From IMG/VR virus record IMGVR_UViG_3300032249_000480, positions 1 to 64,000 of that record: 64,000 bases of DNA. One strand, written 5' to 3'. Below, piece by piece: positions 3,115 to 40,589 of this stretch (its first letter is position 1; every line of letters starts with the position of its first letter). The DNA is from a virus. The notes beneath the pieces were generated by a model. It was not told the DNA's origin. It saw only the letters and a program-made list of their open reading frames with translations, and did not search any database. The position numbers were made by a program, and so were the translations under genes.

Positions 3115-3351
3115 TTAATTATAAGGGTTGGTGTTGATTTTGACAACTTTTGGGGGTGTGACCTTAATCACAGGCTCATAGAACCTGCTTTCAATATCTT
3201 CCACACTGACATATTGCATTTCTCTACCACAAGGGCAGGTCATGCTAACTATACCATTAGGAAAACCATACCCATCCCTGGCGGTAAATTCAAGAAGAGA
3301 ATCACATTCAAATGGATCACAGACAAATGTATACTTAGCCCAGTTCTGCAT
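3115..3351 (-). CDS. hypothetical Cys-containing protein
   Basis: ORF with AGGGAG RBS; CDPFEC and CPCG. Confidence 0.6.
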   Translation of the reverse strand: MQNWAKYTFVCDPFECDSLLEFTARDGYGFPNGIVSMTCPCGREMQYVSVEDIESRFYEPVIKVTPPKVVKINTNPYN

Positions 3352-3502
3352 CTCTTAACTCCCTTACGTAATCTAATATTTCATCTACCGCAAAAAGTTG
3401 TCCTTCAAGGTGCAAAGGATTTTCATCCATAGGATATTCATTAATTGCTTCGCCTATGTCTATTTGACATTCAACAAGATAGTTAATGATGTCGTCAAGC
3501 AT
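3335..3502 (-). CDS. hypothetical acidic protein (55 aa, not in track)
   Basis: MLDDIINYLVECQ...; TAATG-coupled. Confidence 0.55.
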   Translation of the reverse strand: MLDDIINYLVECQIDIGEAINEYPMDENPLHLEGQLFAVDEILDYVRELRDAELG

Positions 3503-3663
3503 TATTCTCCCCAATATTCCATAATAGTATTAAGAGTGATGTGTAGGTTACAGTCACACTCTCCACAATTCATATTTTCCATAAACTCAAAATGGTTAAG
3601 GTTATCTTCGTAGATAGTTGTAACTAGTTCGTCTATTGTATAAGGTTTGTAAGTAGTGGTCAT
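3502..3663 (-). CDS. hypothetical protein (53 aa, leaderless, not in track)
   Basis: MTTTYKPYTIDELV...; TTGACT-17-TAAAAT ends 6 nt before the ATG. Confidence 0.6.
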   Translation of the reverse strand: MTTTYKPYTIDELVTTIYEDNLNHFEFMENMNCGECDCNLHITLNTIMEYWGE

Positions 3664-3779
3664 AGATTAATTTTAGCAGTTCAGCAAAAAAAAGTCAATC
3701 TACGTAATAAGGTTTGGGGAAAAATCTAATGTGATCTTAATCACAAAAACCGAGAAATGTCAAACCCGAGAAATTTTTG

Positions 3780-3853
3780 CGAAGTGTACGGGACTTGAAC
3801 CCGTGATCTCTACCGTGACAGGGTAGCGCATTAACCAACTATGCTAACACTCC
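3780..3853 (-). tRNA. tRNA-Asp(GTC)
   Basis: GGAGTGT/ACACTTC acceptor stem, CTACC-CTGTCAC-GGTAG anticodon arm, GGTTCAAGTCC T arm; CCA not encoded. Confidence 0.95.
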
Positions 3854-3860
3854 AATTGGA

Positions 3861-3889
3861 GAGCAGTTTTAAATCATGCTCAGGATTTA
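3861..3889 (-). ncRNA. repeated H-type pseudoknot element, copy 1
   Basis: UAAAUC-CUGAGCA-U-GAUUUA-AAACUGCUC. Confidence 0.65.
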
Positions 3890-3892
3890 TTG

Positions 3893-4909
3893 CTATGCTA
3901 GTTGCATAACATTTTGTACAACTTTTAGCAGACGATTCTTTTCTGCGTTAATAGCAGGGTCAAATCCACTAGCACTTGCAAGGATAGATTCGTTAGAACC
4001 ACCGCGAGCAGAACGATACCAGTCAAGGCGCTCAGTTAGTGCATTGAAAGCACCCCACGCATTACCAGCAATCATGCCATTGAATTCACCAGTGTAAATG
4101 TCGTTAATAACATCTACCTTGTTTTCCCATTTCTTGAATGAGCCTTTTGCATCTGCATCAGGCTTTGGGTATGCTGCAAGAATAATGTCGTTAAACATTT
4201 TAGCATCAACAGTCTTTTCAATCATTGCCTTAGCCATGATATCAAATTCGTCCATGTACTTATTAGCCATGCCAAGAGTTTCACGTGCAATTTGCACTTT
4301 ACCATTGGCAGTTTGTGTGTGACGAATCTTGAAAGATTGCTTGACGCCATCTTTTTTCTTAGTACGATTTAACGCAAGGTTAAGAGTATTAGCGCACACA
4401 ACACGAACAGGTGTGATGCTTGCTTGAATTGCGATTGAGCCATCGTGTGATGTGTTAATGAGAAGATAAGTTTTAACCTTATCTGCTACACCATTTGGGT
4501 CTAGTACAGTTTCACGCTCTAGTGCTAATGCACCAAATACAACGCGACCACCCTTGATTGAGCCAGCGGTTTCCCAACGTCCACCACCATCTAGTATGTT
4601 ATCACCAAATGAGAATAAATCTTCATTCTGTAAAACATGGTAACGCTCACCAACAACACCCAAAACATCTGTTTGTGTATTTGTTGTAGGATTTGTGCGA
4701 ACAACGTATTGGTATTCCTTGTCGCTTGTTAAGTGTGATGGGATAGGCATGTCTTCAAGACGAACATTCCAACCATTTAGATTTGCTGCTGCGAGCATTT
4801 CTGATGTTGATTTTTCTTCTGTGAAAACAGTACCCAATCCATGCCATGCGGGTTCACGGAATGATGCAAAAGATGCAACGCCGTTTTGAGTTTCTAGGTC
4901 ATGTGCCAT
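3893..4909 (-). CDS. DUF932 / TIGR03299 family phage-plasmid protein
   Basis: MAHDLE, PAWHGLG, ETAGSIKGGRVVF, SHDGS, TPVRVVCANTL and RHT motifs. Confidence 0.9.
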   Translation of the reverse strand: MAHDLETQNGVASFASFREPAWHGLGTVFTEEKSTSEMLAAANLNGWNVRLEDMPIPSHLTSDKEYQYVVRTNPTTNTQTDVLGVVGERYHVLQNEDLFSFGDNILDGGGRWETAGSIKGGRVVFGALALERETVLDPNGVADKVKTYLLINTSHDGSIAIQASITPVRVVCANTLNLALNRTKKKDGVKQSFKIRHTQTANGKVQIARETLGMANKYMDEFDIMAKAMIEKTVDAKMFNDIILAAYPKPDADAKGSFKKWENKVDVINDIYTGEFNGMIAGNAWGAFNALTERLDWYRSARGGSNESILASASGFDPAINAEKNRLLKVVQNVMQLA

Positions 4910-5067
4910 GAGTTATTTCCTTTTCTGTTGTTGTTATTTTAAGTATAACAGTATGGGCTGACAAATGCAAATCAGTATAGTTAAACATAGGACATTTCGG
5001 ACATTTTTTAAAGGGCTCTTAATGTGATGTTGATCACGTGGGCCCGAGATTTTTAAAATAAAAAAGT

Positions 5068-5097
5068 GAGCCGTTTACATGGACACTGCTCAGGTCC
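5068..5097 (-). ncRNA. pseudoknot element, copy 2
   Basis: GGAC-CUGAGCA-GU-GUCC-AUGU-AAACGGCUC. Confidence 0.6.
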
Positions 5098-5114
5098 CTT
5101 TTAGTAGCCCCCTA

Positions 5115-5555
5115 CTAAATATCTATTCTGTCAATTGAACATGACACATATGAAATAGAATCTGAATCATAGTCAATAGTATCAAAGTCAACATTATTAA
5201 CTATATCATTTGCGTCTTCTTCATTACGTGCATTAACAGTCATTGAGTAAGTTACAGAAACTTCAACCTCAAATTCTTTTGTTAAATCAAAACCACAAAG
5301 ATTAGCAATTTCTTCTGCTTGTGATTCTGTTATTTGGCCATTCTCTAGTTCATCAAGCGTCCATTCTTGCATTGCAATACGGATGTTACCAATCTCTGCA
5401 GCATTATGCATATCACGTTGTGATACACGTGCAGAGTGCTCTTCTAATTGCTTGATACGTGCTAGGTTTTCAACAAGAGACTTCTCTAAGAATTCTCTAG
5501 TCATGTAATGATTATCAATTGGCATATCTGATATTGTTGTATGTACTTGGTCCAT
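5115..5555 (-). CDS. hypothetical protein with coiled coil and acidic C-terminal domain
   Basis: ORF with GAGG RBS downstream of a TGTCAG promoter. Confidence 0.7.
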   Translation of the reverse strand: MDQVHTTISDMPIDNHYMTREFLEKSLVENLARIKQLEEHSARVSQRDMHNAAEIGNIRIAMQEWTLDELENGQITESQAEEIANLCGFDLTKEFEVEVSVTYSMTVNARNEEDANDIVNNVDFDTIDYDSDSISYVSCSIDRIDI

Positions 5556-5682
5556 GGGGGCCTCTTCCTGTTAGTTGTTATTAATATAAGTCTAGCATGG
5601 GGCACTGACAAATGCAACTTAATCTTAAAGCATCTTAACCCGTAATGGGTGATCTTGGTCACATTTTCTCGGACCCCAAAAT

Positions 5683-5709
5683 GAGCCTTTTTAAATCTTG
5701 CTCAGGATT
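5683..5709 (-). ncRNA. pseudoknot element, copy 3
   Basis: AAUC-CUGAGCA-A-GAUU-UAA-AAAGGCUC. Confidence 0.6.
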
Positions 5710-5757
5710 GCTCTATAGTATTTCTATAATCGCCCTAATCAGCCTGGCGAATTTTAT

Positions 5758-5928
5758 TTATTTAGTTGTCTTTACCATTGCGAAACGCTTTGAGCCATTC
5801 GCTAGTGTTAAGCCAACACGAGTTACTGTATTGTTAATTGGAGCGAATGAGTTAATTCGTCCAGTTACGCCAGCAGTTGATGTTGTGAATAAATCACCTA
5901 ATTGGTATGTGTATCCTTGTAGAGTCAT
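5758..5928 (-). CDS. small SH3/KOW-like protein (56 aa, not in track)
   Basis: YQLGDLFTTSTAGVTGRI, similar to 6563..6730; AAGGA RBS. Confidence 0.65.
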   Translation of the reverse strand: MTLQGYTYQLGDLFTTSTAGVTGRINSFAPINNTVTRVGLTLANGSKRFAMVKTTK

Positions 5929-5960
5929 TTTGTTTTCCTTTTCTTTGATGGTGGTTTGGT

Positions 5961-5989
5961 GAGCAGTTTAGCATGACTTACTCAGGTCA
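5961..5989 (-). ncRNA. pseudoknot element, copy 4
   Basis: UGAC-CUGAGUA-A-GUCA-UGCU-AAACUGCUC. Confidence 0.6.
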
Positions 5990-6001
5990 GTATTTAGTTG
6001 T

Positions 6002-6424
6002 TTATAGATAACGGGCTACTGCGTTGTAGGTAGAAGTATTAACTACTTCCTCGTCCGTCATTTTGAGAATACGGATAGCATTAGAGATTTCCTCTTTCTG
6101 CTCGTTGTATGTGTGTTGATGTAAAGAAGTGTATCCACGCTCAGGTTCAGCAGGGAACTCACCTTCTTTAACTGTTAAATCAAAATCAACATTGAGTGTC
6201 TTGTTCCATGAGCGATAGTTAGTGCGTAGGTTTTCTGCCTTAGCAATTCTATCTACGGCAAACTTAACAAGTTCTTTACGCCATGCTTCCATAGCCTTCT
6301 CATACTTTGCTTCGTTTGCTTCTTGTGAAGTCCAGTCAAGTTCTAGTTTGTTTAGTGTTTGTTCTAGTGCCTTGATTACTCGCTCAGTAGGTATCTTTAC
6401 TGAGATTGCTTTTCCTCTTGCCAT
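6002..6424 (-). CDS. hypothetical helical phage protein
   Basis: ORF with AAGGA RBS and TGTCAG promoter. Confidence 0.75.
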   Translation of the reverse strand: MARGKAISVKIPTERVIKALEQTLNKLELDWTSQEANEAKYEKAMEAWRKELVKFAVDRIAKAENLRTNYRSWNKTLNVDFDLTVKEGEFPAEPERGYTSLHQHTYNEQKEEISNAIRILKMTDEEVVNTSTYNAVARYL

Positions 6425-6562
6425 TTGTTTGTTTTCCTTTTCTTTGATGGGTTATTTATAGTATAGGGGGTGGGTCTGACATTTTCCCCATAAGGGGGGA
6501 GAGTTCTTACTTACGACATTGGGCTAGATACTCTCCTAAACTGCCCCTGTTTCGTTATTTAA

Positions 6563-6730
6563 TTAGGACTTAGGTGTCCAAGTTGTGTAACGGGTTGTGC
6601 CATTAACATCTAACTTAACGCGAACATTTCCATTTGCCTGTGGCGTAATTTCCTGAATTGTTCCTGTTACCTTTGACTTTTGTGATGTGTAGGTATCTCC
6701 TACTTTGTAAGTTGCTGTTGCGACTGACAT
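6563..6730 (-). CDS. small SH3/KOW-like protein (start MSVATA)
   Basis: YKVGDTYTSQKSKVTGTI; AAGGA RBS. Confidence 0.7.
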   Translation of the reverse strand: MSVATATYKVGDTYTSQKSKVTGTIQEITPQANGNVRVKLDVNGTTRYTTWTPKS

Positions 6731-6931
6731 GATTTCCTTCTTTCTGTTATTCAGGGACTTTCCCTTATGTATTAAGTGTAACATTTCCTACTGACATTTA
6801 CAACATTTATCCCTAGATTTCTCACTATTTGAGACGCTCAGGGGGTGTGATTTATGTCACTCATGTCCAGACCCCATGAATAGGAGCATGGCTATTAGTA
6901 GTGCTAGTATAGTTAGAGATAGCATTTATCC

Positions 6932-7654
6932 TCATTTCTTGCTTGATGAGAAAATTATGTCGCTCTTTGAGTATACACACAATTGGCAAGAAACGCAAGC
7001 GGAGCCCTTAGTTGAGATGAGAGGTATCTGCTTATTATTCTCAGGACACTTTGCGCTAGGCTTACCAATCATTTCTTTTATGTCTGCCTGTCCAATTGAG
7101 AATGACTTAGCAAGGTATGCCATGCGAACGCCACTGTTGATTTTTAGATCTACGGCAGTCTTAACATTCTCACTATCTGCAGAAAAATAAAGACTTAAAT
7201 TAGCAATGTCTTTTAGTATTAGTGCGGCAGACTTAACTCTTGTGTATACCCAGAATTGAATGTCTGTATTATTAGTGATTACTGTCTTCCATGCGTTAGC
7301 ATAGTTATCGCTAAAGAAGTCTCCGTCCCAGTGGATACGGAATAGTAATTGTGCATTTTTCTTTTCGCAATCTTTTCTAAAGTCATTTATCATTTCTGAT
7401 AGCAATGCTTCCATGGTATCTTGATTAGCGTCCTTTAGTAATTCCCAATTGTGCATTAGGTTTACTTTAACACCCTTGAATAGTTTTTCTAACTTTCCTG
7501 CATAGCATACACTTTCGCATACGGATGTGGCTCCAGGGCATGAGAATGCTTTTCCTGCGGGAAGTCCAAAAGTATTAGCAATTGTTGCAGTCTTACCATT
7601 AGGGGATACGGCATTAGTTACTTTTCTATCTTTGCTTCTTAGTAGTTTTGTCAT
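6932..7654 (-). CDS. GP88-like Fe-S (radical-SAM-like) phage protein
   Basis: FGLPAG, CPGATSVCESVCYA, FRIHWDGDF, WVYTR and C-terminal CPE..CxxCxxC; start revised to 7654 because 7680-7701 is its promoter. Confidence 0.8.
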   Translation of the reverse strand: MTKLLRSKDRKVTNAVSPNGKTATIANTFGLPAGKAFSCPGATSVCESVCYAGKLEKLFKGVKVNLMHNWELLKDANQDTMEALLSEMINDFRKDCEKKNAQLLFRIHWDGDFFSDNYANAWKTVITNNTDIQFWVYTRVKSAALILKDIANLSLYFSADSENVKTAVDLKINSGVRMAYLAKSFSIGQADIKEMIGKPSAKCPENNKQIPLISTKGSACVSCQLCVYSKSDIIFSSSKK

Positions 7655-7659
7655 GGTGG

Positions 7660-7806
7660 CTACTCTCTTTCTTTCTTCAATTGTAACATTAGGGACTGAC
7701 ATTTCTTTCTGTCATATTTCTTTTTATTGGGTATTGCAGAGGCAGCATTAGATCTACGTAATTCCATAAGGATACGTAAAGATTCAGGGGTCTTTTTTTG
7801 TCTCAT
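7660..7806 (-). CDS. small basic protein (48 aa, leaderless, not in track)
   Basis: MRQKKTPESLRILMELRRSNAASAIPNKKKYDRKK...; TTGACA-17-TAAGAT ends 6 nt before the ATG. Confidence 0.65.
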   Translation of the reverse strand: MRQKKTPESLRILMELRRSNAASAIPNKKKYDRKKCQSLMLQLKKERE

Positions 7807-7854
7807 GTAATAATCTTAGCAGTTCAGGAGAAAAATGTCAAACTACGTAAAGTC

Positions 7855-7875
7855 TGTGGATAAGCCTGTGGATAA
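7855..7875 (-). promoter_or_regulatory. tandem DnaA boxes
   Basis: TGTGGATAA at 7855 and 7867 (also single copies at 9203, 11353 and 11395). Confidence 0.75.
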
Positions 7876-7888
7876 CGTCCCGAGATTT

Positions 7889-8110
7889 TTATTCAGCAAA
7901 GACAAACAGATCAACAGAATCTTCAAAATTTAATTCTGCAATGTCTTGTTCACCAAAATCATTAACGTGTTTTATAAAATAGTTATCGCCTGTGCCATCT
8001 TGTTCAATAGAAACAATGGTAACGACCTCACCATCAATTGCAATGAGATCGTCCTCCATTAATTCTGAAACTTTAAATTTGCCTGCATTTAGCAATTCCA
8101 TAAGTTTCAT
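7889..8110 (-). CDS. small beta-barrel-like hypothetical protein
   Basis: ORF track; true start may be ATG 8101 (leaderless). Confidence 0.65.
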   Translation of the reverse strand: MKLMELLNAGKFKVSELMEDDLIAIDGEVVTIVSIEQDGTGDNYFIKHVNDFGEQDIAELNFEDSVDLFVFAE

Positions 8111-8122
8111 TGTAACATCCTT

Positions 8123-8215
8123 TTATTGATTTTCAATTTCATCTAGTATCTGCCATAGGACGGTTTCCAAAGCAGGTGTTGCTTCATCTAATAACTCTTG
8201 GAGTGTTTTGCTCAT
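8123..8215 (-). CDS. 30-aa hypothetical peptide (not in track)
   Basis: MSKTLQELLDEATPALETVLWQILDEIENQ; ATGA-coupled. Confidence 0.45.
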   Translation of the reverse strand: MSKTLQELLDEATPALETVLWQILDEIENQ

Positions 8216-8565
8216 TCTAATCCCAATCCTAACTCAAAGCCTTCATCCTCATTCATGGATACAATGCAATCGCTGCAATCGCAATCCCAAACATGGGGCA
8301 ACCAAAAGTCTAAGTGGTGTTGGTCAACAATAGCACTAGCAGGTGCGTGAGTCATTCCTTTATAAAGAATCTGAAAGTCACCAACCATAGGCATTTCAAT
8401 CATGCGGTTATAGTCCTCATCATAGAAAGCGTCAATAGCCTCAATGCAAGGCTTGACCATTTCTGCTGGTATTGGTGGATAGTGATTACCCTTTAAGTGA
8501 TAAAGTAATTGTGTTTCTAAATCCAAAACTGAATCTTGGATACCTAGTGCTGTTACTGCTCCCAT
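8212..8565 (-). CDS. hypothetical phage protein
   Basis: HLKGNHYPP motif; translational coupling. Confidence 0.7.
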   Translation of the reverse strand: MGAVTALGIQDSVLDLETQLLYHLKGNHYPPIPAEMVKPCIEAIDAFYDEDYNRMIEMPMVGDFQILYKGMTHAPASAIVDQHHLDFWLPHVWDCDCSDCIVSMNEDEGFELGLGLE

Positions 8566-8780
8566 TATTTTGTTACGACCTTTCGTCCTTGGCGGTAGAA
8601 TACCTTAGTGTGCATTTTGCCACTAGGTTCAGATAGATTAACTGTAGCATATTCATCAGCAAATCCCCAATCTATATGAGTATTAAATTCATTAACTGCC
8701 GTTAATGCATCTGAGTAGCGACCTGTCCAATGAGGTGCGTTGCCATCATAGGCAACTGTTATAGCGTAGTTATATTCCAT
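8565..8780 (-). CDS. hypothetical protein
   Basis: AAGGAG RBS; TAATG coupling. Confidence 0.7.
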   Translation of the reverse strand: MEYNYAITVAYDGNAPHWTGRYSDALTAVNEFNTHIDWGFADEYATVNLSEPSGKMHTKVFYRQGRKVVTK

Positions 8781-8965
8781 TATGCGTTCTCCTTAGTTTT
8801 GAATAAGTGGTGATATTCTTGTATTTCATCAGCAGGGATATTGTAAGTATTACACTCACACGCCCATAAATCATAGTCTACATCATTTCCTGCAAATTGC
8901 CAACCATTACCATAGCAGTAGTGGCAGGTTAAAATACCAAGAATAGAATCTTTGAATTTTCCCAT
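8780..8965 (-). CDS. small Cys-rich protein
   Basis: CxxCxGxG...CEC; similar to 9669..9788. Confidence 0.65.
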   Translation of the reverse strand: MGKFKDSILGILTCHYCYGNGWQFAGNDVDYDLWACECNTYNIPADEIQEYHHLFKTKENA

Positions 8966-9093
8966 TAGTAATACCAATCCTCTCCAAGAGCCTTTTCAGC
9001 GCACCAATCAGTATAGTGCTTATCGCACATAGTTTCAACACTAGCGTCTATCGTGTTTATATTATTTTTTGTAGCGTAACAGATATTACACAT
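8965..9093 (-). CDS. small Cys/His protein (42 aa, not in track)
   Basis: MCNICYA...MCDKHYTDW; AAGGA RBS. Confidence 0.55.
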   Translation of the reverse strand: MCNICYATKNNINTIDASVETMCDKHYTDWCAEKALGEDWYY

Positions 9094-9247
9094 AAGTTTT
9101 CCTTTCTTAGAATAATCTAAGCCTATCAGATTAGACTGACACTTTCAAGTTACAAACACCATTTCAGGGGTATTCTGGGTGTGTTTTTAATCACATCTTA
9201 ACTGTGGATAACTTGTGGACGACACGCCGAGATCTCGGGAAAAATTT

Positions 9248-9274
9248 GAGCAGTTTATATTCTTGCTCAGGAAT
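9248..9274 (-). ncRNA. pseudoknot element, copy 5
   Basis: AUUC-CUGAGCA-A-GAAU-AU-AAACUGCUC. Confidence 0.65.
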
Positions 9275-9283
9275 TTATTTTAA

Positions 9284-9457
9284 TTAATCTGTTTTAGTAC
9301 AAGCGTCCCAAAATTTATTTTCATCAAACCTTGGATTGTCTGAACTAAACCATTCACTAAATTCAAAAACTAAATCTTGAAAAACATGTGAGTCAATTCC
9401 ATCTACAAATTGATTTAAAATTTTTGCGGTTTCAACATAGTCTTTGCGAGTCATCAT
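9284..9457 (-). CDS. small phage protein (MTRKDY...DNPRFD...F..AC type)
   Basis: Recognisable small phage-protein motif; TAATG-coupled. Confidence 0.7.
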   Translation of the reverse strand: MMTRKDYVETAKILNQFVDGIDSHVFQDLVFEFSEWFSSDNPRFDENKFWDACTKTD

Positions 9458-9669
9458 TAGTTTTTGCCAACTTTCAAAACAGCCCATTGATTATTTTCGT
9501 TAAGTTTATTTAAAAAGCCTTCTTCTTCAAGAGCAGAAAGAAAAGCCCCACGAAGCATTTGCTCCATTTGTTCCTCAGATAAACTAAGAAAAATATTTAG
9601 CAAGTTAGCAGGCATTTTGAATTCGTCAATTTCAGTGACAAGGTTTACAGTGTGGTTTAGTGTTATCAT
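9457..9669 (-). CDS. hypothetical protein
   Basis: ORF with GAGGAG RBS. Confidence 0.65.
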   Translation of the reverse strand: MITLNHTVNLVTEIDEFKMPANLLNIFLSLSEEQMEQMLRGAFLSALEEEGFLNKLNENNQWAVLKVGKN

Positions 9670-10392: not shown

Positions 10393-10605
10393 TATTAGCC
10401 ACTTCCTTTCTTTATTTTCTTACTATGTAAGTTTAACAGATTTAGGAGAGATTTACAACTTACTAGCCAGTAAATCCAAATAATGAGACGCTCAGCGATG
10501 TGATTTAGCCCACAAACTTTCTGTGATCTTAACCACATCGTACGTAAAGCGACACGCCGTCTGCGCCGAGAAAAATCGCAGAGTTTATTTCTACGATCTT
10601 AGTTT

Positions 10606-11556: not shown

Positions 11557-11591
11557 ATGAGCGTAGCAAATAAGTAACCTAAATCACACAA

Positions 11592-25584: not shown

Positions 25585-26137
25585 TTATTTTTTCCAAATT
25601 GTTTTTAATAGAATTCATATATATATCAGAAACTTCAGTATTATCTTTTAATATATTTAATAGCATTATGGATTCTTTTAATCTGCCAATCCACCATGCA
25701 GCAATAGCCTTTTGAAATGTTAATGCATATTTTGCAGGGTAGTCAACATTAATAGGAAGACTCTCATCTTGTTCACCAAACATTAAACCAATTTCTGCAA
25801 AGGTATAAGACTCTTGCCAATTACCAGCACGTTCATGAAACCTTGACATAAGGAAATAACCTTCTGGTCTATTAGGAAGATATTGAATTGCTTGATATAA
25901 ACAGTTAGTTATTGTATTATTTCTATCATTTTGATCTTCAAAGCATATTGATACCCTGAGCAAAGATGAATAGGTAATTAATGGATCTGTAATATATCCA
26001 TATTCCGCTGCTCTTAAATAAAAAGATACAGCAGAAGCAGTTTGCTGTAATTCTTCATATTTTTTAGCAACTTCAAAATTTAAAGACGGGTTAAAAGGAT
26101 CATATGAAAGATCATAAATTAAATTCTCAATTTCCAT
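25571..26137 (-). CDS. TPR-repeat protein
   Basis: A..FYLRAAE and AIQYLPNRPEGY helical repeats. Confidence 0.7.
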   Translation of the reverse strand: MEIENLIYDLSYDPFNPSLNFEVAKKYEELQQTASAVSFYLRAAEYGYITDPLITYSSLLRVSICFEDQNDRNNTITNCLYQAIQYLPNRPEGYFLMSRFHERAGNWQESYTFAEIGLMFGEQDESLPINVDYPAKYALTFQKAIAAWWIGRLKESIMLLNILKDNTEVSDIYMNSIKNNLEKINAPV

Positions 26138-38558: not shown

Positions 38559-40589
38559 ATGTCAGATTTCTTTTCTTTTCGTCTTGTAGACGACTTTATT
38601 AATAAATATTCAGAGGTTCCAGCACCTTTTGGATTTACAGATGCAGGAGGAAACTCATTAGGAGAGATAACATTTATTCGTACGTATTCAAGAGTAAAAG
38701 ATGATGGTACAAAAGAAAAATGGTATGAGGTTTGTAAGCGTGTAATTGAAGGTATGTACTCAGTTCAAAAGAATCATGCAAAAGAAAACCGTCTTCCATG
38801 GAATGACAATAAAGCACAGAAGTCTGCACAAGAAGCCTTTCAAAGAATGTTTGAACTAAAGTGGACTCCACCAGGTCGTGGTCTTTGGGCATTTGGAACA
38901 CCAATGGTTATGGAAAAGCGCAACTCTGCATCACTTCAAAATTGTGCAATGGTTTCTACTCGTGACATTGATAGAAATGATCCAGGAGCATTGTTTGCTT
39001 GGACAATGGATGCTCTTATGCTTGGTATTGGTGTAGGGTTTGATACTGTTGGACAAGAAAAACAAATGTCAATTTATGCACCAACAGAACCAGTAAATAC
39101 CTATCAAATTCCTGATACTCGTGAGGGATGGGTAGAGTCTGTTCGTTTGTTAATTAACTCATTCCTTCGTCAAAATCAATCTATTCAAGACTTTGATTAC
39201 AGTTTGATTCGTCCACTAGGAGCGCCCATTAAAGGTTTTGGCGGGGTAGCCAGTGGACCACAACCATTGATTGACCTACATATAAGAATTAGGAAAGTTA
39301 TAGGGTCTAGAGCGGGAGAGATTCTTGATGCTCGTGCAATTGTTGATATTGTTAACCTTATTGGAACATGTGTTGTTTCTGGAAATGTTCGTCGTTCTGC
39401 AACACTTGCATTAGGTGCTGCTGGTGATGAAGAGTTTATGAATCTTAAAAATGGAGAAGTATTTCCAGAAAGAAACTCGTTTGATCCAAAAAATCCAGGC
39501 TGGGCATGGATGTCTAACAATTCTATTTCAGCATCAATTGGAACAAGATATGAAGATTATGTTGATGTAATCTCTGATAATGGAGAGCCAGGGTTTATTT
39601 GGCTTGATGTTGCTAGAAACTATGGTCGCCTTGCAGATTCTGCAGATGGCAAGGACTATCGTGTTATGGGTTTTAATCCTTGTGCAGAGCAGCCATTAGA
39701 ATCATATGAACTATGCACACTTGTAGAAGTTCATTTAAATCGTCATGAGTCTAAAGAAGATTTTCTTAAGACATTGAAATTTGCTTATCTTTATGGAAAA
39801 ACCGTTACTTTAATGCCAACTCATTGGCAAGTTACAAATGGAATTATGCAAAGAAATCGCCGTATTGGAACATCTCTTACTGGTATTGCATCGTTTGCAG
39901 ATACTCATGGATTGCCAACAACCCGCGAGTGGATGGATGAGGGATATCAAAAGATACGTGCCTATGATCACAGTTATTCAGAATGGCTATGTGTTCGTGA
40001 ATCAATTCGTGTAACAACTGTTAAGCCTTCAGGATCTGTATCACTATTGTCTGGTGCAACTCCAGGAGTTCACTGGGGTCCAGGAGGAGAATTCTTTTTA
40101 CGTGCTATCCGTTTTGGAGAGCAAGATCCAATGCTTCATTTATTTAGAGCAGCAGGATATAAAATTGAAAAAGACGTTGTATCAGCAAATACACAAGTAG
40201 TATATTTCCCAGTTCACTCAGGACACCCTAGATCTGAAAAAGATGTAAGCATGTTTGAAAAAATTGGATTGGCAGCAACTGCTCAAAAATATTGGTCTGA
40301 TAATGGTGTTTCAGTTACATTATCTTTTGATAAAGAAACGGAAACTAAATTTATTGCTCCAGCACTACACATGTATGAGGGACAATTGAAGGCAGTATCT
40401 TTTCTTCCAATGGGTAATAAAACATATCCACAACAACCATACACTCAAATAACCAAAGATGAATATAATGACTATGTTGGAACTATTGCCAAGATTGACT
40501 GGAATGCTATTTATAATGGTGTAGAAAATCTTGAAGCAGAAGGAGAAATGTACTGCACCACAGATGTTTGTGAGATTAAAATAAAATAA
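38559..40589 (+). CDS. nrdJ: class II (adenosylcobalamin-dependent) ribonucleotide reductase, RTPR type
   Basis: PPGRGLW, NCA, GNVRRSA, NPCAEQ, TTVKPSG, C-terminal CTTDVC. Confidence 0.95.
   Translation: MSDFFSFRLVDDFINKYSEVPAPFGFTDAGGNSLGEITFIRTYSRVKDDGTKEKWYEVCKRVIEGMYSVQKNHAKENRLPWNDNKAQKSAQEAFQRMFELKWTPPGRGLWAFGTPMVMEKRNSASLQNCAMVSTRDIDRNDPGALFAWTMDALMLGIGVGFDTVGQEKQMSIYAPTEPVNTYQIPDTREGWVESVRLLINSFLRQNQSIQDFDYSLIRPLGAPIKGFGGVASGPQPLIDLHIRIRKVIGSRAGEILDARAIVDIVNLIGTCVVSGNVRRSATLALGAAGDEEFMNLKNGEVFPERNSFDPKNPGWAWMSNNSISASIGTRYEDYVDVISDNGEPGFIWLDVARNYGRLADSADGKDYRVMGFNPCAEQPLESYELCTLVEVHLNRHESKEDFLKTLKFAYLYGKTVTLMPTHWQVTNGIMQRNRRIGTSLTGIASFADTHGLPTTREWMDEGYQKIRAYDHSYSEWLCVRESIRVTTVKPSGSVSLLSGATPGVHWGPGGEFFLRAIRFGEQDPMLHLFRAAGYKIEKDVVSANTQVVYFPVHSGHPRSEKDVSMFEKIGLAATAQKYWSDNGVSVTLSFDKETETKFIAPALHMYEGQLKAVSFLPMGNKTYPQQPYTQITKDEYNDYVGTIAKIDWNAIYNGVENLEAEGEMYCTTDVCEIKIK

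Follow-up and report, generated by a model that had tools for sequence, protein, structure and literature searches.

A compact coremin-like pseudoknot that recurs behind stop codons in DNA phages and may act as a roadblock to mRNA decay

The window, a stretch of 64,000 nucleotides (nt), is the first 64 kb of the IMG/VR virus record IMGVR_UViG_3300032249_000480, a genome of 104,786 bp with terminal repeats and 35% G+C. On the minus strand of positions 3700-9400 we located five copies of a short RNA motif with the layout P1(5′)-CU-GAGYA-N(1-2)-P1(3′)-N(0-4)AAA(C/A)-(U/G)GCUC, in which P1 is stem 1, GAGYA and (U/G)GCUC are the two sides of stem 2 (P2), and L1 to L3 are the loops. A preliminary description of this DNA had placed five minus-strand copies at 3861, 5068, 5683, 5961 and 9248, and its observations were right in every detail that could be checked, including the five different P1 pairings and a loop GAGY(A) complementary to the 3′ UGCUC, with a U-G wobble that is found in copy 4. 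The copies, together with the tRNA and the gene that flank copy 1, are as follows.

3861-3889, minus strand: pseudoknot copy 1; P1 UAAAUC (3889-3884) with GAUUUA (3875-3870); P2 GAGCA (3881-3877) with UGCUC (3865-3861); L1 CU; L2 U; L3 AAAC
5068-5097, minus strand: pseudoknot copy 2; P1 GGAC with GUCC; L2 GU; L3 AUGUAAAC; P2 GAGCA with GGCUC, four pairs and an A-G mismatch
5683-5709, minus strand: pseudoknot copy 3; P1 AAUC with GAUU; L3 UAAAAA; P2 GAGCA with GGCUC, four pairs and an A-G mismatch
5961-5989, minus strand: pseudoknot copy 4; P1 UGAC with GUCA; L3 UGCUAAAC; P2 GAGUA with UGCUC, including the U-G wobble
9248-9274, minus strand: pseudoknot copy 5; P1 AUUC with GAAU; L3 AUAAAC; P2 GAGCA with UGCUC
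3779-3853, minus strand: tRNA-Asp (GUC), with its 5′ end, the expected RNase P cut, 7 nt past copy 1
3893-4909, minus strand: DUF932-family gene, with its stop codon ahead of copy 1; this gene was the query used to fetch related phage loci

No sixth copy was found on either strand of the whole 104,786-bp genome, and a dinucleotide-shuffle control gave 0 matches expected by chance for the layout seen in the window. The sequence of P1 was different in each of the five copies and paired in all five. Copy 1 scored 45.3 bits with a covariance model (R1) built from pattern-selected copies. Each copy lies behind a stop codon, and the distances from stop to P1 fell within the 3-50 nt given in the preliminary description: 3 nt from the TAG of the DUF932 gene to copy 1, 17 nt from the TAG of the open reading frame (ORF) 5115-5555 to copy 2, 48 nt from the TAA of ORF 5758-5928 to copy 3, 12 nt from the TAA of ORF 6002-6424 to copy 4, and 9 nt from the TAA of ORF 9284-9487 to copy 5. 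What follows the motif varies. The proximity of copy 1 to the 5′ end of tRNA-Asp, also claimed earlier, corresponds to the gap of 7 nt. Copies 2, 3 and 5 are directly followed by A-C-UUUUUUAUUUU, AUUUU and AAAUUUUU, respectively, and in all three a U-rich run leads on to the promoter-like site of the next unit. Copy 4 is followed by the ribosome-binding site of the next gene, ORF 5758-5928, which begins 32 nt downstream. A terminator scan of the minus strand found no ordinary hairpin terminator beside any copy or at these unit ends; the sole minus-strand match in 3500-9600 was at 8053-8021, within ORF 7889-8110. The small ORFs that flank the copies each have a sigma-70-like promoter ahead of them, and it is plausible that the genes flanking the copies are early genes.

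The motif was then defined from a larger set of sequences. Its canonical form is 27 nt long and reads NNNC-CU-GAGYA-N-GNNN-NNAAAC-UGCUC. Stem 1 has three to six variable pairs and is always closed by C-G, loop 1 is C(U), and a single unpaired base lies between the two stems. The sequence of stem 2 is GAGYA/UGCUC, often lengthened to UGAGCA/UGCUCA, and loop 3 has an invariant AAAC at its end. UGCUC is followed by an A in 66% of the copies and then by C-rich, G-poor sequence; with this A, stem 2 can form the six pairs UGAGCA/UGCUCA, leaving a single-base loop 1 that fits a stem of such length. All 150 of the IMG/VR matches listed had a P1 of at least 3 bp, although the search pattern imposed only the closing C-G pair and about 14% would be expected to do so by chance. 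The C-G pair closed P1 in 100 of 100 canonical copies (alignment A2), and in 274 of 522 matches that were anchored on P2, the rest being mostly due to the reverse strand, on which the palindromic P2 also matches. When P2 was held canonical, loop 1 was CU, the closing pair was C-G and loop 3 ended in AAAC nearly without exception.

To vary stem 2, a descriptor was used that left the sequence of P2 free and required only that it pair, with reversed sequences as the control. The commonest stems were GAGCA/UGCUC (286) and GAGUA/UGCUC (95), and compensated variants were also present: AAGCA/UGCUU (31), GAGUA/UACUC (14), UAGCA/UGCUA (9), GAACA/UGUUC (6) and GGACA/UGUCC (5). None of the compensated variants occurred in the reversed-sequence controls. 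Model R1 was too strict for such variants, which came from descriptors of their own, and since MAFFT misaligned P1 when given the five window copies, copies of equal length were used for alignment instead. A selection that does not presuppose the pairing was made by taking 27-mers with the unpaired or invariant anchors (C4, C5, U6, G13 and AAAC) that lay no more than 30 nt past a stop codon. There were 208 distinct sequences of this kind, compared to 10 in the reversed control, and P2 was fully paired in 195 of the 208. In an alignment of 150 of these sequences (A3), 93.9% of the cells were in standard pairs, compared to 75.8% in column shuffles and 28-40% when the partners were slid, and the covariation score was 0.49 against 0.17 in the shuffles. 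Changes on both sides of a pair were seen in all five P2 pairs and in three of four P1 pairs (eight of nine in total), and P2 was paired in 95.7% of the cells. The H-type pseudoknot is real, and both helices covary over hundreds of independent copies, which strongly supports the earlier proposal of such a fold on the transcribed strand. The G-U pairs in both orientations, together with the strict strand bias described below, showed that the structure belongs to the transcript.

The motif is widespread in DNA phages. With the DUF932 gene as query, 80 related IMG/VR loci were retrieved from 332 relatives confirmed by tblastn, and in these loci the strict pattern matched 301 times on the gene strand, with 203 distinct sequences, and 0 times on the opposite strand. 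A pattern scan of the whole of IMG/VR gave at least 150 matches in at least 119 stretches on very different contigs. In prokaryotic genomes, one per species, there were at least 122 matches; among the matches listed, P1 had at least three pairs in 83, and the bins included Saccharibacteria, Aminicenantes, Clostridia, Lacticaseibacillus, Calothrix, Anaerolineae, Polynucleobacter and others. A large share of them probably represent prophages or phage contigs that ended up in the bins. Short BLAST probes found carriers among cultured phages as well, namely Roseobacter phage SIO1, Lentibacter phages, the Arthrobacter Amigo group, the Bacillus megaterium Page group, Lactobacillus phages KC5a, Lj771 and phig1e, Staphylococcus phage StB12, the crAss-like phages cr7_1 and cr124_1, the thermophilic phage D6E, Nostoc phage NMeng1, Cyanophage S-RIM4, Synechococcus phage S-EIVl with three copies, Paracoccus phage ParMal1 and Mycobacterium phage Labelle. 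The hosts are Firmicutes, Actinobacteria, Cyanobacteria and Alphaproteobacteria of the Roseobacter group, and the crAss-like carriers presumably infect Bacteroidota. A megablast search of the 5.7-kb region of the window against the cultured-phage collection gave no match.

Rfam 15 did not contain the motif. The only match in the window at gathering score was the tRNA, and models that included preQ1, fluoride, pistol and hammerhead gave nothing at the motif positions in L001 and L004 at E values up to 10. The Rfam match that would have removed novelty was absent. A full-text literature search with sequence words of the motif returned only unrelated primer matches, and a search by topic found no publication on it; the Minerva preprint held nothing on the motif. 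The motif is a large, well-supported RNA family that is absent from Rfam.

Two cultured phages carried divergent copies. In Synechococcus phage S-EIVl (KJ410740.1; L326) the copies lie at 25894-25916, 38784-38806 and 39503-39525 and have the tail variants AAACUACUC, AAAGUGCUC and AAAAGACUC; one of these restores pairing with the loop GAGUA, and one leaves a C-A mismatch. Vibrio phage D456 g1 (OZ195695.1; L330, 396-430) has a near-complete copy with a loop 1 of CC instead of CU, which lies antisense to the annotated small ORFs. Unless those ORFs were miscalled, this copy does not serve as an RNA.

The genomic context was analysed in 459 non-redundant copies. In most of them P1 starts 4-12 nt past the stop codon of an upstream ORF on the same strand, with a peak at 5-7 nt and almost none closer than 3 nt. 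The stop codons ahead of the motif are mostly TAA, and about two thirds of the extensions past the stop, in all three frames, are shorter than 10 codons. The distance to the next start codon, in contrast, covers a broad range. We infer that the minimum distance between stop and knot may equal the stretch of mRNA that a ribosome covers while it is at the stop codon, so that the knot would sit as near as possible without being unwound at each termination.

Elements that make RNA ends lie immediately downstream. A tRNA gene on the same strand (Asp, Arg, Ser or Gly) begins 3-13 nt past the motif in 65 of the 459 copies and in 16 of 237 in a diverse set; in Arthrobacter phage Amigo an annotated tRNA-Gly begins 3 nt past it. 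A tRNA upstream of the motif was found in one copy only. On the minus strand of a contig binned with Polynucleobacter (L272, 7271-7625), each of two consecutive small genes has behind it a knot and a type III hammerhead ribozyme, the latter with Rfam scores of 50.5 and 41.2 bits, and the two ribozymes flank a small gene. Stem III of these hammerheads starts from the first base past the knot and the cleavage site lies 6 nt past it, and one of the two knots carries the compensated stem 2 GAGUA/UACUC. Further cases of a knot with a hammerhead were found in L264, L089 and L092 with a separate descriptor. A run of at least six T in the next 10 nt was present in 15% of the copies compared to 2% in a control window. 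The neighbourhoods have no shared protein family, the commonest being DUF932 in 20 of 119 loci, and the genes immediately downstream of several copies encode scaffold or capsid proteins (Lj771, StB12 and D6E). In two loci (L113, 257-445, and L318, about 5406-5592) the DUF2800 RNA (RF02960) starts 1-2 nt past the knot.

Of the roles suggested in the preliminary description, namely a nuclease block, a processing signal or a protein-binding element, the first is the one that this context favours, with the block placed at the 3′ end of the upstream message. We tentatively propose, at somewhat less than an even chance, that the motif is a putative mechanical roadblock that forms a protective cap at the 3′ terminus of the message of the upstream cistron. 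The fold would be placed as near to the stop codon as the terminating ribosome permits, and a 3′ end would be made a few bases downstream, whether RNase P cuts at a tRNA, a hammerhead cleaves, transcription terminates at a U-run or the RNA is trimmed back from a more distant point. The knot, left at the 3′ end with a tail of 3-13 nt, would then keep 3′-to-5′ exonucleases such as PNPase and RNase II/R out of the coding region, and in the window each small transcription unit would gain a stable end of its own. Such a cap would account for the closeness of the motif to the upstream stop codon and for the presence of end-making elements after it and never before it. Since these separate elements (a tRNA with its RNase P site, a hammerhead or a U-run) sit just downstream, the motif does not appear to be the cleavage signal itself, a role in which it would be redundant beside them. 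A wider proposal, which we regard as doubtful although possible, is that the motif represents the first class of exoribonuclease-resistant RNA (xrRNA) in prokaryotic viruses, with a minimal fold in common with the coremin xrRNAs of plant and fungal RNA viruses; the 27-nt knot would in that case be a plug, universal and portable, with which DNA phages split long transcripts into separately stable messages and block enzymes of the RNase J type, the PNPase type, or both.

Several observations weigh against a 3′ cap. The usual block to exonucleases is a plain GC-rich hairpin, and the stems of the motif are singly weak, with nearest-neighbour energies of +0.5 to -4.0 kcal/mol for P1 and -3.2 to -5.4 kcal/mol for P2, so the fold must be cooperative. 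About 30% of the copies have no evident end-making signal, and in these there is just a start codon for the following gene, 10-50 nt downstream. In 53 of 418 copies the following ORF is on the opposite strand, which is no enrichment over a crude baseline of 26%, the ORF-based gene calls being crude themselves. No phage of Escherichia, Salmonella or Pseudomonas was among the matches of three BLAST probes of cultured phages, and the same probes gave no full-motif match in a Klebsiella phage, where there was one partial match of 17 bases inside a gene (E 4). This gap counts against the cap because a block to the universal 3′ exonucleases does not predict it. A search of sequencing runs with window positions 3700-9400 found no run recorded as RNA. 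Finally, the closest characterised relatives, the coremin xrRNAs, stop enzymes from the 5′ side and not from the 3′ side (PMC6546385, PMC10520033).

The last point leads to the principal alternative. Coremin consists of a hairpin of 3-4 bp that needs a C-G closing pair, a YGAD loop, a spacer of two free bases, tolerant of insertions, followed by an essential AAAC-U-A (A15-A17, C18, U19 and A20), and a second hairpin, features that mutagenesis has defined. It can halt both ribosomes and Xrn1, the latter coming from the 5′ side, and it promotes frameshifting; the stop of a 5′-to-3′ exoribonuclease lies one base ahead of the first hairpin. Coremin occurs, as xrRNA-C and as the Watson-Crick variant xrRNA-WCC, in RNA viruses of plants, fungi and invertebrates (PMC6546385, PMC10520033, PMC10321173). 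By analogy, the phage motif could be a roadblock to machines that move 5′ to 3′ (RNase J, RNase E scanning from the 5′ end, Rho or post-termination ribosomes) and would shield downstream RNA from decay or traffic begun upstream. The two motifs have the C-G closing pair, a C as the first loop base, two free spacer bases and AAAC-U as common invariants, and the natural heptaloop CGAGUAA, which is resistant to Xrn1, is one base off the phage loop CUGAGUAA (PMC10520033). The copies immediately upstream of scaffold and capsid genes would also suit a 5′ block. So would the carrier hosts and the lack of Escherichia, Salmonella and Pseudomonas phages, with the partial match in Klebsiella, if RNase J were the target; to our knowledge, RNase J is not found in beta- and gammaproteobacteria. 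However, some carriers are in Polynucleobacter, Coxiellaceae or Gammaproteobacteria bins or are Vibrio phages, which weighs against this reading. A cut by a hammerhead or RNase P 3-13 nt farther on leaves the knot with the upstream fragment, where it cannot guard the downstream RNA, and U-runs directly after the knot suggest that on those transcripts nothing downstream is to be protected. The motif hugs the upstream stop, whereas its distance to the next start varies widely. A second hairpin of the coremin type, of at least 4 bp and 0-5 nt after the motif, was present in 54 of 449 copies compared to 87 and 110 at two control offsets. We consider a 5′ roadblock rather unlikely, though it would remain a serious competitor of the 3′ cap.

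Other explanations give the motif a partner or an activity of its own. It is unlikely to be a recognition site for a protein or a ribonucleoprotein, whether the partner would be an endonuclease that cuts next to it, RNase P, which would take the stacked stems and the 3′ ACC-like tail for a mini-helix, or a regulatory protein that binds RNA. Near-invariance of 17 of the 27 positions across phages of very different hosts goes beyond the needs of a simple barrier and would suit such a site, as would the A after UGCUC and the C-rich, G-poor stretch behind it. However, the neighbourhoods hold no common protein family that could supply the partner, the host range would demand a universal one, and the adjoining end-making elements would be redundant if the motif directed cleavage. 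The U-runs directly past stem 2, and the three window copies that end units where no ordinary terminator-like hairpin is found, would agree with an action on RNA polymerase, either as a compact substitute for a terminator hairpin with stem 2 closing before the U-run or as a pause or antitermination element. This is quite improbable, as 85% of the copies have no U-run, and copies with a tRNA 3-13 nt downstream or the next start codon 20-40 nt downstream must be read through; the terminator scan called 0 of the 5 window copies. A tiny self-cleaving ribozyme, or an aptamer that binds a ligand, would show comparable base conservation in a pseudoknot and could occur in as many unrelated contexts; the motif adjoins hammerheads, as other ribozyme classes do, and its stem, its loop paired with a 3′ tail and its A-rich linker resemble the preQ1-I aptamer. 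Yet 27 nt is far below any known natural self-cleaving class, no consistent expression platform lies downstream, the stem 2 pairs are freely swappable, and the Rfam ribozyme and riboswitch models gave no match, all of which make this reading very unlikely. The least probable, to the point of being nearly negligible, is a site in DNA such as an operator, a recombination site or a single-strand origin. The conserved blocks do form an inverted repeat, TGAGCA...TGCTCA, but their spacing varies from 11 to 14 nt or more, P1 covaries within what would be the spacer, the orientation follows transcription strictly (301 to 0), and the G-U pairs in both stems would be A-C mismatches on the other strand. 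A stimulator of programmed frameshifting or readthrough was excluded, the frame not being open beyond the stop.

Other features were noted in the region around the copies. A 14-bp palindrome, GTGAYYNANATCAC, is present at about eight sites, all within the first 12 kb, with 11 strand matches compared to 1.3 expected, and several of the sites fall between a pseudoknot and the next TTGTCA/TTGACA promoter-like site. The palindrome resembles an operator at which a regulator would control the early units.

3158-3171, 3731-3744, 5024-5037, 5649-5662, 6847-6860, 9181-9194, 10523-10536 and 11574-11587: sites of the palindrome GTGAYYNANATCAC

The gene at 6563-6784 has no pseudoknot after it. Instead, an inverted repeat GGAGAGU...ACUCUCC and a CCCC-UUAU-GGGG hairpin are found on the minus strand at 6470-6545, and these may represent a different type of structure at gene ends. 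Near the copies, the box AAATCTCGGG was no more frequent than expected by chance.

If the motif is a roadblock to decay, phages of Gram-positive bacteria, actinobacteria, cyanobacteria, alphaproteobacteria and probably Bacteroidota would share a device of 27 nt that fixes the boundaries and lifetimes of messages within long transcripts. This would tie bacterial mRNA decay to the biology of xrRNAs, hitherto known from eukaryotic RNA viruses only, would help to account for the hammerheads and tRNAs between phage genes, and would offer synthetic biology a very small, host-independent stabiliser or insulator of mRNA. Whatever its function, a model of the motif would improve the annotation of phages by marking true gene ends and the coding strand.

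Several known systems resemble the motif in part. The RNase III sites of the T7 early genes and the 3′ stabilisers of the repetitive extragenic palindromic (REP) type in E. coli operons are long hairpins, and the T7 sites are cut by RNase III itself. They are likewise repeated structures at cistron boundaries, and after processing they leave a 3′ structure on the upstream message that slows 3′ exonucleases. In contrast, the phage element is a pseudoknot of 27 nt, and separate elements appear to do the cutting. The preQ1-I aptamer (RF00522) is a small H-type pseudoknot in the leaders of queuosine genes, in which a hairpin loop pairs with the 3′ tail past an A-rich linker; the phage motif differs from it in having no Rfam match, an unconserved single junction base, no expression platform and a position at gene ends instead of leaders. 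[quoted passage not shown] Similar to the phage motif, they have a loop 1 of 1-2 nt that starts with C, a short junction and an A-rich loop 3 over a short stem 1, and they are placed 5-8 nt past the A-site codon, which can be likened to the placement of the motif behind the stop (discussed in PMC10321173). However, the phage motif comes after a stop codon, without a slippery site or an open frame beyond, and the sequences are unrelated.

Canonical coremin with a tetraloop was also found in IMG/VR (L338-L455, for example L364, L352, L376, L392 and L446), as a covarying hairpin with a CGAA loop followed by UUAAACUAC. The small contigs with tandem copies of it are probably RNA viruses. In one group of contigs of 30-50 kb, coremin stands after a terminator-like hairpin with a T-run and before a gene, the reverse of the order of phage knot and U-run. 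This arrangement, which comes from few independent lineages, fits the idea that coremin and the phage knot would guard opposite ends of the message. The class 3 xrRNA (PMC12397905) has a different fold.

A comparison with coremin showed a short first hairpin with an obligatory C-G closure in both (the requirement in coremin: PMC6546385) and a C as the first loop base. The phage spacer, NN with insertions of 0-6 nt, likewise leads to AAAC-U, although the next bases are GCUC and not AC. In both, a very small pseudoknot arises from pairing between the loop and the 3′ part of the spacer, the A's are proposed to lie in the minor groove of stem 1, and the motif is placed in untranslated regions after ORFs. 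The phage loop is different, with 8 nt (CUGAGYAN) and G as its third instead of its second base, compared to YGAD, or YGNNAD for hexaloops, in coremin. Stem 2 has 5-6 Watson-Crick pairs, not three or non-canonical ones, with a tail of UGCUC instead of UAC; an antiparallel Watson-Crick stem 2 is also found in xrRNA-WCC, there with 3 bp (PMC10321173). Furthermore, a second hairpin is not enriched after the phage motif, and its carriers are DNA phages. Coremin guards the downstream RNA against a 5′ exonuclease, whereas the phage motif is followed by U-runs, tRNAs and hammerheads, which would indicate the 3′ end of an upstream RNA. The motif is thus a compact, coremin-like pseudoknot of the H-type with a new loop, a new realm of hosts and a distinct context.

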